Shown here one piece after another: positions 47,068 through 51,337 of a DNA stretch of 64,000 bases. Position 1 is the stretch's first letter; the number at the start of each line of letters is the position of its first letter. The translations under genes and the position numbers were made by a program. Source of the stretch: Planctomycetota bacterium (GTDB lineage Bacteria; Planctomycetota; UBA1135); the NCBI GenBank assembly GCA_024229395.1, contig JAAESM010000050.1, positions 250,758 to 314,757 of the forward strand. Direction: 5' to 3'. The notes beneath the pieces were generated by a model. That model had not been told where the DNA came from and did not search any database. It saw only the letters and a list, made by a program, of their open reading frames with translations.

Positions 47068-49005
47068 TCAGAATTCCTTCTCGACCGTGATGCGCTTGCC
47101 CTGCATGAAGTGTCCGGCATTGGCGATATCCGGAGCAATCTTCACAGTCTCTCCCAAACCATGCGTTCCCTGGAGTTTGGCATGCGCACTTCGTAGGCCA
47201 CCTAACCACCAGCGCCTGTCGCAAAGGTAGACCAGGTCGCCTTCATTGGCGGATAAGTGGTGCATGCCTTCTGGGTCTACGCAGACCGTGCCTTCGGCCA
47301 GACTGTCATCGACTTCCCAGGTCATTGGCAACTTGAAGCCGGGCGTATCGTTGGGTTCACCACCCTTGAAGTAACGGCGCGCGTAAGACAACGTCCATAG
47401 CGTGAGGCCCTCGAGCTTGCGATCCTTGCTGGGTGTCAGCAGGCTGGCGATGATGCCGATGCCGAAGCAGGCCAACAGGTTGTAGAGCGCACCGATGTAG
47501 GTGTACGGCGCCTTACCCCCTTCCGGCAATGGGATGCCATGCGAGAACAAGCCGATGATCTGTTCTGGCCAAGTGCGGCCGAGGATGATCAACAAGATGC
47601 CTCCAGCGAAGGTCGCGATTGCACCCGCGGAGTTGAAACGCTTCCAGAAGATGCCAAGGAAGATGCAGGCCACAAGTGGTGGCGAGATGGTGCTCTGGAA
47701 GAAGGCGTGGGCGGTGTAGAGGTCCTCGAACTGCGCAAACATCCAAGCCGCTGCCACACCAATCAAGGTGCCGATGGCAGAGATAATCATGGCCGCGCGC
47801 AGGAAGTGCTTGTCGCCACGTTCCTTGTTGCGCCATTTCATAATCGGCTTGTAGATATCGTTGATCGCGATCGCTGCCGAAGCGTTGATGTAGGTGTCCA
47901 CCGACGACATCAAAGCCGCAGTCACTGCTGCCACGAAGAAGCCGAAGCCTGCCGTTGAGGTGAGCAGTTGCGTGACCATCACGAACACCGTGTCCGGTGC
48001 CATGTCATCAGGGAGAATGCCGGGCTCAGTCTCGACCATGCCTGCGCCAATCCAACCGGCACAACACACTGCGATTGCCGATAGCGGCAAGGCGAACAGC
48101 ACGTTGAAGGCTGCAGCCTTACGACCATGATCGACCGAACGGCATGCCATGAAGCGCATGATCAAGCCCTGACTCATGAACAGGAATGCGATCGAACCAG
48201 CGATCGCATCTTGCCAGAAGATGCCGACGAAGTTGAAACTCGGGTCATCGTTGAAGTTCGCCAGTGGCAACTTGAACTCGTCGGGCAAGGCATTCCAGAA
48301 GGCGTCGAAACCGCCAAACCAGTTCAATCCAAGCAGGAAGAGCATCAGGCCAGCGAACAGCAGGATGAAACCCTGCAGCAGGTCGGTGAAGATCACCGCA
48401 GTCTGTCCACCGAAGGTGATGTAGACACCAGCGACCACCGCCACCACCCAGATGATGTCCATCAGGCTCCAACCCAGAGCGCCTCCGACGATGGGCTCCA
48501 AGGTGCGTGCCATGGTCAAGAAACCAATACCCACATAGCCGATCATGTAGACCAGCTGCACCAAGGTGGCGAGCAGGCGCACGAAGGGATTGAAGCGTCG
48601 TTCGAAATACTCCGGGATCGAACGCACCTTCATGTAATAGACGATTGGTAACCAACCGAAGATGAACAACGGCATGAAGAACCAGTCGTTCATGTACGCC
48701 ATTGAACCGGAGAACCCGTTCTCGAAACTCTTGGCGCTGTACTTGACGAAGCTATGACTGCCGACGCCGGTCGCGACGATCGACATGGTGATCAGCCACC
48801 AGGAGAAACGTCGGCCGCCGAAGAAGAAGTCCGAGGTGGAGCGGTTGAACTTGGCGAAGTAAGAACCGAAACCAAGCACCACCACGAAGTAACCGATCAG
48901 GATGCTCCAGAACAGTGGCGATTCGCCGGCAGCCGCGGCGGCTTGCGAGGCGGCATCGGATGGAGTCTCGGCCGCGTGTTGCAGCAACATCAAGGGCAGG
49001 TTCAT
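47068..49005 (-). CDS. sodium:solute symporter (SSF) family transporter with a ~100-aa soluble C-terminal extension
   Basis: The N-terminal FFFGGRRFSWWLITMSIVATGVGSHSFV is typical of SSF, followed by about 13-14 hydrophobic helices. The C-terminal EVDDSLAEGTVCVDPEGMHHLSANEGDLVYLCDRRWWLGG...ITVEKEF is non-membrane. The ATG at 49005 (cat 49003-05) avoids overlap with the upstream small ORF. Confidence 0.85.
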   Translation of the reverse strand: MNLPLMLLQHAAETPSDAASQAAAAAGESPLFWSILIGYFVVVLGFGSYFAKFNRSTSDFFFGGRRFSWWLITMSIVATGVGSHSFVKYSAKSFENGFSGSMAYMNDWFFMPLFIFGWLPIVYYMKVRSIPEYFERRFNPFVRLLATLVQLVYMIGYVGIGFLTMARTLEPIVGGALGWSLMDIIWVVAVVAGVYITFGGQTAVIFTDLLQGFILLFAGLMLFLLGLNWFGGFDAFWNALPDEFKLPLANFNDDPSFNFVGIFWQDAIAGSIAFLFMSQGLIMRFMACRSVDHGRKAAAFNVLFALPLSAIAVCCAGWIGAGMVETEPGILPDDMAPDTVFVMVTQLLTSTAGFGFFVAAVTAALMSSVDTYINASAAIAINDIYKPIMKWRNKERGDKHFLRAAMIISAIGTLIGVAAAWMFAQFEDLYTAHAFFQSTISPPLVACIFLGIFWKRFNSAGAIATFAGGILLIILGRTWPEQIIGLFSHGIPLPEGGKAPYTYIGALYNLLACFGIGIIASLLTPSKDRKLEGLTLWTLSYARRYFKGGEPNDTPGFKLPMTWEVDDSLAEGTVCVDPEGMHHLSANEGDLVYLCDRRWWLGGLRSAHAKLQGTHGLGETVKIAPDIANAGHFMQGKRITVEKEF

Positions 49006-49009
49006 CAGG

Positions 49010-49225
49010 CTACAGATTGATAGCGGCGAGAGTGCCAAGTCCGTGGATGGCTGCGTACCAGCAGAAGCCGAAGAGCAAGACGCCGAGCCAACGACGATGT
49101 GAACGGCGCTTCCAATCCAACGCGCCGCTCTTCAGGACCAGCAGGATGCCGCTGAAGAAGCAGAAGCCTCCAACTCCGTACAGATAGATGTACGGCAACC
49201 AAACGCGATCAAAGGGCAAGTCCAT
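49010..49225 (-). CDS. small (71 aa) two-TM membrane protein immediately upstream of the symporter (possible symporter-associated subunit)
   Basis: ATG at 49225 (cat 49223-25). MDLPFDRVWLPYIYLYGVGGFCFFSGILLVLKSGALDWKRRSHRRWLGVLLFGFCWYAAIHGLGTLAAINL has two hydrophobic helices. The stop lies 4 nt before the symporter ATG. The rest of the 211-aa track ORF is antisense to the riboswitch and leader. Confidence 0.45.
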   Translation of the reverse strand: MDLPFDRVWLPYIYLYGVGGFCFFSGILLVLKSGALDWKRRSHRRWLGVLLFGFCWYAAIHGLGTLAAINL

Positions 49226-49333
49226 CGGCACAACATCATAGCCGCGCCTGCGCTTGTCGAGCGCCGGCCTGCGGCTTTGCTGGGTGGAAGCATGGTGGGA
49301 GTTGTGCTGCATCCGCGCACCGCTTAGAATCGC

Positions 49334-49430
49334 CCCTGCATCTAGACGGGAGGAGGGTAAGGCCCTGCGAATCTCGGCCAACCGGCACAGCACGGTGGCA
49401 ATGCCTTTCGCTGCGGCGAAGCGATGCGGG
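49334..49430 (+). promoter_or_regulatory. candidate SAM-I (S-box) riboswitch aptamer in the 5' leader of the homocysteine methyltransferase/MTHFR gene
   Basis: An ungapped by-eye alignment to the T. tengcongensis SAM-I core compares UAGACGGGAGGAGGGUAAGGCCCUGCGAAUCUCGGCCAACC with AAGAGAGGUGGAGGGACUGGCCCGAUGAAACCCGGCAACC. GGUGGCAAUGCC compares with GGUGCCAAUUCC. The helices can be drawn as follows: P1 is CCUGCAUC (49335-42) / GAUGCGGG (49423-30). P2b is GGG/CCC with a 5-nt loop. The K-turn GA/GA is kept. P3 is ACCG/CGGU (49381-84/49393-96). P4 is UUCGC-UGCG-GCGAA (49407-20). The pseudoknot is AAGGC/GCCUU. Confidence 0.55.
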
Positions 49431-49462
49431 AGTCCTCTCCTACCGTCGGTGGTGCATTCTTC

Positions 49463-51337
49463 ATGAATCCAAGCCCTCCACCACGGCCCGACCTTCAAAC
49501 CACCCTCGAAAGCAGCATCCTGGTGCTCGACGGCGCCATGGGCACGCAACTGCACGAACGCGGCATCGCCTTCAATAGTAGCTTCGAGACCGCCAACGTC
49601 GACAAGCCGAACTGGGTGCAGGAAGTCCATCAATCCTTCCTGCAAGCGGGCGCCGACGCCATCCTAACCAATACCTTTGGTGCCAACCGCTATCGCCTTG
49701 GCCGCCACCAACTTGGCGATCAGCTGCAGGCCTTGCTCGAAGCTGGTGGCAGTTTGGCACGCGAAAGTGCCGGCGATCAGGCTTATGTGATCGGTTCGCT
49801 TGGACCGCTAGGTGTGGAGCTGGAACCGATCGGACGTCTGGAAGAAGCCGAGGCGCGCTTGGCCTTCGCCGAGAGTGCCAAGATCTTGGCGCCTTTCGTG
49901 GATGGCTTCTCGCTCGAGACCTTCGATAACATCGCCGAGCTCGAGCAAGCGATTCGCGCTGTGCGTGAAGTCAGTGACCTTCCGGTCATGGCATTCCTGA
50001 CGGTAGGCGATGACACGCGCACCCAACATGGTGCAACGGCTTCCTCAGTCGCTGTGCGTGCCGCAAATGCCGGCGCCAGCATGGTCGGCTTCAACTGCAG
50101 TAGTGGCCCGCGCGTGGTGCTGGAGGCGGTGCGCCAAGCCAGTCAAGAGATTGAACTGCCACTCGGCGCCAAGCCCAATGCCGGTATGCCGCGCCAAGTG
50201 GATGGGCGCATCTTCTACGAGAACGACCCGGATTATTTCGCACGTTTCGCACGGCGCTTCCTGCAGGTGGGCGGCCAGGTGATCGGTGGGTGCTGCGGCA
50301 CGACCCCGGAGCACATTCGCGCCATTACCCGCGCAGCCCGCGCCGGACGTCAGCATATGCACCATGTCGGTGCGCATCCACATCAGGTCAGCGCCAAGCC
50401 GAAGAAAGCAAGCCCTGGCGTGGAACCTGTACCGCTGAAGCGCCGCTCGGCTTTCGGCAGTGCCTTGGCCAGTGGACGCACTGTGATCAGTGTGGAGTTG
50501 GTGCCACCGCGCACCACCGATACCAGTAAGTTGATCCATGCTGCGCGTGAATTGCATGTTGCAGGCGTGGATGCGGTGAACTTGCCGGATGGACCGCGAG
50601 CATCGGCACGCTTGTCGAATATGGCCACCGCCACCATATTGTTACGCGAGACCCGGATTGAACCGTTGCTGCATTTCTGTTGCCGCGACCGCAACCTGCT
50701 AGGCATGCAGTCAGACCTGCTCGGTGCTGCCGCTTTGGGTTTGCACAATCTGTTGATCGTGACTGGCGACCCACCTTATCAAGGGGACTATCCCGATCTG
50801 ACCGCGGTCTTCGATGTCGACGCCATCGGCTTGTGCAACATCGTCGCCAACTTGAATCGTGGTCTGGACCTTGGCGGCAACCCATTGGGATCCCCCACCG
50901 CATTCTGCTTCGGCGGGGCCTTGAACCATACTGCACTGGACATGGAGCGCGAGTTGGAACGTCTGAAGTGGAAGGTTGAATCAGGCGTGAACTACCTAAT
51001 CACTCAACCGGTATTCGACGCCGCTTCCTTACTCGAGATGGAAGCGCATTTCCCCGACGATATGCCGCCCGTACTGGCTGGCATTTGGCCGCTGCGCAGC
51101 TTGCGCAATGCCGAGTTCCTGCATTCCGAGGTTCCTGGCGTACGATTACCGCAAGTGATACTGGAGCGTATGCGTAAGGCCGAGGATGCCGGGCGTGCCG
51201 CCGAGGAAGGCTTGCTGATCGCAACCGAGACCATCAAAGATTTGCAGGGCAAGGTCGCTGGATTCCAGGTTGCTGCCCCCTTCAACAAGGTCGAACCGGC
51301 CCTCGAGCTTACGGAGCTGATTCGCGCAGGCGATTGA
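49463..51337 (+). CDS. bifunctional homocysteine S-methyltransferase / 5,10-methylenetetrahydrofolate reductase (YitJ-like)
   Basis: The N-terminal Hcy-binding domain has ILVLDGAMGTQLHERGI, NTFGAN and GGCCGTTPEHI. The C-terminal MTHFR domain has ISVELVPPRT, LLHFCCRDRN, LLIVTGDPP and YLITQPVFD. The start is at the ATG at 49463 or the ATG at 49424. Confidence 0.85.
   Translation: MNPSPPPRPDLQTTLESSILVLDGAMGTQLHERGIAFNSSFETANVDKPNWVQEVHQSFLQAGADAILTNTFGANRYRLGRHQLGDQLQALLEAGGSLARESAGDQAYVIGSLGPLGVELEPIGRLEEAEARLAFAESAKILAPFVDGFSLETFDNIAELEQAIRAVREVSDLPVMAFLTVGDDTRTQHGATASSVAVRAANAGASMVGFNCSSGPRVVLEAVRQASQEIELPLGAKPNAGMPRQVDGRIFYENDPDYFARFARRFLQVGGQVIGGCCGTTPEHIRAITRAARAGRQHMHHVGAHPHQVSAKPKKASPGVEPVPLKRRSAFGSALASGRTVISVELVPPRTTDTSKLIHAARELHVAGVDAVNLPDGPRASARLSNMATATILLRETRIEPLLHFCCRDRNLLGMQSDLLGAAALGLHNLLIVTGDPPYQGDYPDLTAVFDVDAIGLCNIVANLNRGLDLGGNPLGSPTAFCFGGALNHTALDMERELERLKWKVESGVNYLITQPVFDAASLLEMEAHFPDDMPPVLAGIWPLRSLRNAEFLHSEVPGVRLPQVILERMRKAEDAGRAAEEGLLIATETIKDLQGKVAGFQVAAPFNKVEPALELTELIRAGD

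Follow-up and report, generated by a model that had tools for sequence, protein, structure and literature searches.

Introduction

In Bacillus the yitJ leader terminates transcription intrinsically, and its antiterminator competes with the 3’ strand of P1. The SAM-I aptamer of metF-H2 from Thermoanaerobacter tengcongensis serves as the crystal-structure reference of the class. SAM-I riboswitches as a whole are among the most widespread riboswitches (PMC5473149). A translational member has been validated in the met operon of Xanthomonas campestris, where the SD and the AUG are hidden when SAM is bound (PMC7270179). This riboswitch, SAM-I(Xcc), features a long platform of three hairpins in which SD and anti-SD are defined, and it binds initiator tRNA in the uncharged form as well (PMC7270179). 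A literature search returned no paper on SAM-I in Planctomycetes specifically.

Here we analyze a SAM-I riboswitch located in a 64-kb stretch of DNA (the window, meaning the whole stretch analyzed) from a marine planctomycete. The genome (G000) is a MAG of 3.1 Mb in 93 contigs, 87% complete and with 57.6% GC; its relatives are marine Planctomycetota MAGs. Our main reading is that the riboswitch lies at the 5’ extreme of the yitJ mRNA and lowers YitJ synthesis when SAM is plentiful, acting as an OFF switch on translation that is possibly reinforced by Rho. We assign this reading a probability of roughly 0.6. Coordinates of all features are collected in Table 1.

Table 1. Features of the yitJ leader and of further SAM-I-type leaders in the same genome (positions refer to the window unless another sequence is named).
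Feature	Position	Strand	Basis
SAM-I aptamer	49335..49430	+	RF00162, 66 bits; compensatory changes among 23 related aptamers
P1	49335-42 / 49423-30	+	CM alignment; 8 bp
P2a	49347-51 / 49372-76	+	CM alignment; takes in G48-A51 / U72-C75 of the first-pass annotation
K-turn bases	49352-54 and 49366-71	+	CM alignment
P2b	49355-57 / 49363-65	+	CM alignment
P3	49377-85 / 49390-99	+	CM alignment
P4	49408-11 / 49416-19, plus pair G49403-C49422	+	CM alignment
Pseudoknot, P2 loop with J3/4	AAGG 49359-62 / CCUU 49404-07	+	
Expression platform (tail)	49431..49462	+	pyrimidine block antisense to J1/2-P2a 5’ strand
Candidate start-site hairpin, SAM-bound state	49443..49486	+	CCGU/ACGG, GGUGG/CCACC, AUUC/GAAU; AUG 49463-65 at apex
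C-rich, G-poor stretch, possible Rho loading site	49435..49512	+	32 C, 13 G in 78 nt
Sigma-70-type promoter	49302..49330	+	-35 TTGTGC 49302-07, 17-nt spacer, -10 TAGAAT 49325-30
Regulated gene yitJ, 624 aa	49463..51337	+	NF006396, 671 bits vs cut-off 453
metH SAM-I riboswitch, own genome	C73:31768-31866 (L002:1501-1599)	- (L002)	63 bits, full; metH = S-methyl_trans + Pterin_bind
Two near-identical SAM-I-like aptamers, own genome	C18:5861-5951 (L004:1501-1591), C18:6773-6863 (L003:1501-1591)	+	39.9 and 41.5 bits

A SAM-I aptamer upstream of yitJ

The whole 64-kb window was scanned with cmscan against 4227 Rfam families (Rfam 15). The SAM family (RF00162) matches at 49335-49430 on the plus strand with 66.0 bits against a gathering threshold of 44.4 (E = 3.9e-13 for the 64-kb window). 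The match covers model positions 1-108 of 108 and is therefore full length and not truncated; no other gathering-level Rfam match was found elsewhere in the window. A first-pass annotation, made from the letters alone, had folded the leader into the SAM-I architecture and named the Rfam SAM models as a check. The helices of the covariance model agree with that fold, and no other SAM class scores better on the leader. Assignment to SAM-IV (RF00634) or SAM-I/IV (RF01725) was considered and rejected: a permissive scan of 49200-49560 (E ≤ 10) reported RF00162 only, with one lower-scoring match suppressed that belongs to the same clan (SAM-IV and SAM-I/IV are also members of it), and P4 of the window aptamer sits at the SAM-I position. 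SAM-I is the best-fitting SAM class for this segment. Judged by its sequence, the element is a genuine SAM-I aptamer and an ordinary member of a well-known class, for which binding of SAM is predicted. Its only somewhat unusual trait is the coupling to gene expression.

All core blocks are present in the window, namely the A-U/U-A pairs of P1, AGA in J1/2, CAACC...GGUG in P3 and CAAU in J3/4, and they are invariant in 23 aligned aptamers. The K-turn signature GGA (49352-54) and GAA (49369-71) aligns to the consensus, a statement that concerns the sequence level and not the geometry. The motifs named in the first-pass annotation are all found at the positions given there: AAGGC (49359-63), GCCUU (49403-07), CCUCUCC (49434-40), CCUACC (49439-44), GGUGG (49448-52) and the two ATGs at 49463 and 49424.

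Covariation was assessed on the same alignment, in which MAFFT left P4 unresolved; of its aptamers, 15 precede yitJ in the family and 8 precede metH in the genus. Double changes that keep the pair occur at 9 of 24 predicted pairs, all in P1, P2a and P3. For example, columns 4/157 in P1 hold G-C in 11 and C-G in 10 aptamers, and columns 15/40 in P2a hold G-C in 12 and A-U in 10. This bears out the compensatory changes that had been claimed for the aptamer, including the A-U pair in P2a: A51-U72 of the window is replaced by U-A, U-G or C-G in relatives. The proposed AAGGC/GCCUU pseudoknot is retained with AAGG paired to CCUU, and it covaries in part. Its GG/CC core does not vary, 17/23 aptamers have A-U as the third pair, and a fourth pair exists in 9/23, as C-G (5), A-U (3, the clade of the window) or U-A (1). 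Two segments that had been listed as deviations, GGCCAACC and GGUGGCAA, do differ from the consensus but contain no insertion. Each represents one side of a single P3 pair that is flipped, from G-C in the consensus to C49378-G49398 in the window, and the flip is common to 23/23 related aptamers. Overall the aptamer is under selection.

Regulated gene, start codon and promoter

The aptamer ends 32 nt before the ATG of yitJ and lies on the same strand, i.e. in sense orientation. The product of 49463-51337 is predicted to be a YitJ-type bifunctional homocysteine S-methyltransferase / methylenetetrahydrofolate reductase (MTHFR), with the Pfam domains S-methyl_trans at residues 20-291 and MTHFR at residues 333-595. 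The gene context read from the letters alone is therefore confirmed by the equivalog model NF006396 (Table 1). An alternative start at AUG 49424, within the P1 3’ strand, had also been put forward. This ATG is in frame in the window but not in the G004 ortholog, and the start of yitJ is consequently placed at 49463. Since the upstream genes are divergent and the next downstream gene is convergent, yitJ is monocistronic.

The divergent upstream genes are a small ORF of 71 aa (49005-49225, minus strand, start at 49225), which precedes an SSF symporter gene (47068-49038). Their arrangement is kept throughout the genus, with or without the riboswitch. A minus-strand ORF of 211 aa that runs over the riboswitch (49010-49645) was dismissed as spurious, since Pfam gave no match for it and the small upstream gene has its conserved start at 49225.

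A scan for consensus promoters found none, because the -35 element matches at only 3/6 bases; the promoter was revealed solely by comparison of orthologs. The four closest species, among them the aptamer-less G002, all share the pattern GTTGT...17 nt...TAGAAT without change, and a TAnnnT hexamer lies 4–8 nt ahead of the aptamer in 15/15 yitJ leaders. Transcription is predicted to start at about 49336-38, within the first bases of P1. As the conserved promoter places the transcript start at P1, the riboswitch would constitute the very 5’ end of the yitJ mRNA. The heptamer CTGCATC of the P1 5’ strand (49336-49342) recurs 29 nt upstream at 49307-49313, inside the promoter spacer. This repeat is found in the genome of the window only and is absent from G008 and G004.

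The tail between aptamer and start codon

No intrinsic terminator was found on the plus strand between 49431 and 49700, in agreement with the translational platform proposed in the first pass. A transcription-terminating S-box leader of the Firmicutes type was rejected, as this region is without a terminator-like site.

Within the tail a pyrimidine block, CCUCUCCUACCGUC (49434-47), forms 12 base pairs with GACGGGAGGAGG (49345-57), interrupted by a single G.A mismatch (-20.9 kcal/mol). The pairing suggested earlier between CCUCUCC and the 5’ strand of P2 is thus real and longer than claimed, and the antisense design of the tail recurs in relatives. In addition GGUGCA (49451-56) is complementary to UGCAUC of the P1 5’ strand (49337-42). 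The composite long-range helix between tail and aptamer is the MFE structure of 49330-49480; the duplex reaches -29.9 kcal/mol with z = -2.0, and 13/300 dinucleotide shuffles are as good. Duplex energies in the three aptamer-bearing species are -29.9, -31.4 and -28.0 kcal/mol, each reached by 2–4% of dinucleotide shuffles. Alternatively the tail can form a local hairpin with the P1 3’ strand (49423-32) of -8.1 kcal/mol. In the ligand-free ensemble the aptamer helices have probabilities of 0–0.3, and the tail:P2a pairing has one of 0.99–1.0 as long as the transcript ends between +3 and +18. Beyond that length tail:P2a and tail:P1-3’ pairing together account for about 0.8–1.0. Both the aptamer fold and the pairing of the tail need the J1/2-P2a 5’ strand, to which the tail is antisense, and they are therefore mutually exclusive.

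These pairings suggest how the switch may operate. Without SAM the block 49434-47 would be captured by purine strands that are otherwise buried in the folded aptamer. The main partner would be the J1/2-P2a 5’ strand (49345-57), extended by P1 5’ (49337-42) with 49451-56, and the P1 3’ strand (49423-32) would be a second possible partner. Either pairing would destroy the aptamer and leave both the AUG and the first part of the coding region unpaired, turning yitJ ON. With SAM the aptamer would be locked and the tail released, which could then fold back onto the initiation region. The hairpin at 49443-86 is the best candidate for this fold, a 5-bp CUACC/GGUGG hairpin being the weaker alternative. 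Translation would be hindered and yitJ turned OFF. The exposed C-rich tail together with the leader-proximal ORF may additionally permit termination by Rho.

The start-site hairpin folds with -16.0 kcal/mol, both when the aptamer is enforced and when the downstream part is folded alone. Compared with shuffles it gives z = -1.9 (12/300) in the window, -1.5 in G008 and +0.2 in G004, and it can also be formed in the aptamer-less leader of G002; its support is modest. With 45 nt of the ORF included it is partly present in the ligand-free ensemble too, and the computed pairing of -20 to +12 is nearly alike between the states, with the A and U of the AUG unpaired in both. Plain MFE folding is indecisive: the whole leader has z = -0.7 and rival states are 1–2 kcal/mol apart. 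The energies are -49.5 kcal/mol for the consensus aptamer plus start hairpin, -61.2 kcal/mol for the alternative helix and -62.0 kcal/mol for the unconstrained MFE. Within the model, nearest-neighbour energies do not cleanly separate the two states.

SD usage and a possible contribution of Rho

The first-pass annotation had offered a more classical platform, in which GGUGG (49448-52) is the SD, sequestered by CCUACC (49439-44) with SAM present and freed in its absence when CCUCUCC pairs with the P2 5’ strand. The anti-sequestor half of this model, the pairing of the tail with the P2 5’ strand, is supported by the data above. The sequestor can form as well: the 5-bp CUACC/GGUGG hairpin has -4.2 kcal/mol, a comparable CACC/GGUG hairpin exists in G004 (-3.9 kcal/mol), and the metH leaders of the genus likewise rely on a short 5-bp pairing between tail and start, UGUCC/GGACA. 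However, the hairpin is weak (-2.4 to -4.2 kcal/mol) with a loop of 3 nt, it is left with 3 pairs in G008, and in the MFE with an enforced aptamer the partner of GGUGG is CCACC, which lies in the ORF.

The role of GGUGG as an SD is itself doubtful, because G000 rarely uses SD sequences. Upstream of 1901 long ORFs in this genome GGAG peaks at -12 in about 3% of cases, GGTG shows no positional enrichment, and the commonest start context is a C at -1 (48%). The anti-SD is not readable directly, as the 3’ end of the 16S rRNA is absent from the MAG. Furthermore 10 nt separate GGUGG from the ATG, and the aptamer-less orthologs of the genus are without any purine-rich SD. We therefore consider sequestration of GGUGG as an SD unlikely and retain an OFF switch in which the initiation region itself would be covered.

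A further question is whether the output lies in translation at all. SAM could free the C-rich tail; joined with the likewise C-rich and G-poor 5’ end of the ORF (50 nt), it would serve as a rut site, so that Rho stops transcription early in yitJ as the primary output. The sliding C/G ratio peaks at 2.46 in 49435-49512, the maximum within the leader and the 5’ part of the gene, against 1.02 for the whole gene. Rho is encoded in G000 (TIGR00767, 536 bits, cut-off 509), an intrinsic terminator is absent, and several translational riboswitches in Proteobacteria act through Rho too. Yet this case is purely compositional: the C-richness stems partly from the proline and threonine codons of the N-terminus, and orthologs without an aptamer retain a similar N-terminal coding sequence. 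From composition a role of Rho at this site is possible, and Rho as the primary output is in our view rather improbable. Control of translation remains the preferred reading, with Rho at most as reinforcement.

The antisense tail in related leaders

For the window leader alone the antisense complementarity lies only about 2 standard deviations beyond shuffles, and the three leaders that carry it are close relatives. True covariation is not seen for the alternative helix because the aptamer side does not vary. A pattern search in the 49 genomes of the family confirmed only the same three (G000, G008, G004). In metagenome contigs an exact-pattern scan for the P2 sequence specific to the clade found none, and a protein-based scan found no relative above 69% identity. 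As these scans added no closer relative, the specific platform rests on three sequences, and support for an antisense tail comes mainly from related leaders.

Among the 15 yitJ leaders of the family, 10 have a tail antisense to the 5’ half of their aptamer, with at most 3/300 shuffles as good, and the aptamer segment that is targeted differs between genera; one example is a tail with GGCCUGUCCCUCC directed against GGAGGGACAGGCC. The metH leaders of the genus show the design throughout: in 8/8 the tail GCCUGUCC directly follows P1 and is antisense to the P2b segment GGACAGGC, and the start codon is embedded in an invariant GGACAUG, at variable spacing from the tail. GGACAUG at the metH start reads as a mimic of GGACAGG in the aptamer. 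In the metH riboswitch of the window’s own genome the tail GCCUGUCCCUCC is antisense to GGAGGGACAGGC, which comprises P2b and its loop.

As a control we inspected 20 SAM-I leaders from other Planctomycetota families (L209-L228). None of the 20 has the antisense-tail design (the best is equalled by 16/200 shuffles), and about half possess terminators composed of a hairpin and a U-run, with antiterminators that compete with P1. Transcriptional and non-terminator SAM-I platforms both occur in Planctomycetota. Since the leaders of the relatives share the design and the 20 controls do not, the antisense-tail, terminator-less platform is a trait of the family to which the window belongs.

Two further aptamers on contig C18 of the same genome score just below the gathering threshold, and their P4 is replaced by 2–3 nt. 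They precede a 254-aa protein without Pfam match and a 238-aa protein of the FGase family (PF05013), respectively. Copies of this type are found in G004 (45.5 bits) and G005. In 3 of 4 copies (L003, L207, L208) a 10-nt segment over the start codon, ACAUGUGUCA, complements the P3 loop region exactly. The C18-type aptamers may be SAM-I/IV-like.

Distribution and history of the yitJ riboswitch

SAM-I matches above the cut-off were obtained in 19/151 sampled Planctomycetota genomes and in 27/49 genomes of the family. Within the genus 8/9 genomes have a match. The metH-type copy is present in seven genomes (all but G006) when the window’s own genome is counted separately, i.e. in 8/9 overall. An aptamer in front of yitJ is restricted to G000, G008 and G004.

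This patchy occurrence bears on whether the yitJ aptamer functions at all. If it were a relic or a chance match, yitJ would be constitutive as in most species of the genus; 6/9 species indeed have no aptamer before yitJ, and its deletion in G002 implies that regulation of yitJ by SAM is dispensable in the lineage. On the other hand, the match stands 22 bits above gathering with all core blocks intact and a P1 of 8 bp. The three aptamers are 88–93% identical, with differences that fall mainly into the P3 loop and P4 and keep the pairing, and complementarity of the tail to the aptamer is kept in G004 despite an indel of 2 nt. A non-functional aptamer therefore seems very improbable to us, and we continue to read it as a working switch.

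G002 is sister to G004 on the YitJ tree (SH-aLRT 92), within a clade of 100% support. About 100 nt are missing from its yitJ leader (L008:1431-1530), corresponding to the aptamer and the first half of the tail. The promoter, a P1 5’ remnant CUGCAC and the distal tail GUGCAC are kept, and the latter two form a CUGCAC...GUGCAC hairpin. The case looks like a clean secondary deletion of the riboswitch.

Concerning the origin of the yitJ aptamer, the copies of the clade share features of P1 (GCAU...AUGC) and P3 (CCGG...CACGG) with the metH aptamers of the genus, and the aptamer tree groups both with a support of 87/87. This suggests that the yitJ aptamer was re-acquired from a metH leader. The metH-linked aptamers in this tree come from the genus only, so gain and loss are not separable by the tree alone.

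Combining these observations we tentatively propose a family-specific platform. The strand following P1 would be antisense to J1/2-P2 instead of the P1 3’ strand and would by turns invade the aptamer and cover the start codon, in largely SD-less genomes; the yitJ copy would have arisen recently from the paralogous metH leader and would have been deleted again in G002. As a whole this proposal is possible, with somewhat less than even odds.

Comparison with known systems

The riboswitch leaves the knowledge of the SAM-I class itself unchanged. It allows SAM feedback on the methyl cycle of an uncultured marine planctomycete to be annotated with confidence, with yitJ and metH each under a SAM-I switch. 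It also represents a compact natural example, consisting of a 96-nt aptamer and a 32-nt platform in a genome that makes little use of SD sequences. Presence and absence within the genus, including a clean deletion with promoter and start region intact, provide a natural comparison for the gain and loss of riboswitches. The lineage-specific design of the platform and the informative gain/loss pattern are modest extras.

Within its own genome the yitJ riboswitch resembles that of metH: in both the promoter lies directly before P1, a terminator is absent and the tail behind P1 is antisense to the P2 region. The two differ in their targets. The metH tail is directed against P2b and its loop and has a second partner, GGACA, abutting the AUG, whereas the yitJ tail is directed against J1/2-P2a and its second partner is less clear.

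The reference aptamer of T. tengcongensis metF-H2 and the window aptamer have in common the four-way junction, the conserved core blocks, the sequence signature of the K-turn in P2 and a pseudoknot that joins the P2 loop to J3/4. The window aptamer differs by the A-U pair in P2a, by the second P3 pair, which is flipped to C-G, by short P3 and P4 helices and by the AAGG/CCUU sequence of the pseudoknot.

The yitJ S-box of B. subtilis belongs to the same aptamer family (RF00162) and regulates the same gene (NF006396), presumably by the same logic of SAM turning expression OFF. In contrast to it, the window leader has no terminator, its aptamer is followed by the ATG after only 32 nt, and the strand that competes is complementary mainly to J1/2-P2a and not to P1.

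Compared with SAM-I(Xcc), the window riboswitch is far more compact: its platform of 32 nt contains no convincing SD, nothing in it points to tRNA sensing, and P2, not P1, is the target of its switching strand. By analogy, the nearest functional counterparts of the window riboswitch would be translational SAM-I switches, of which SAM-I(Xcc) is an example.
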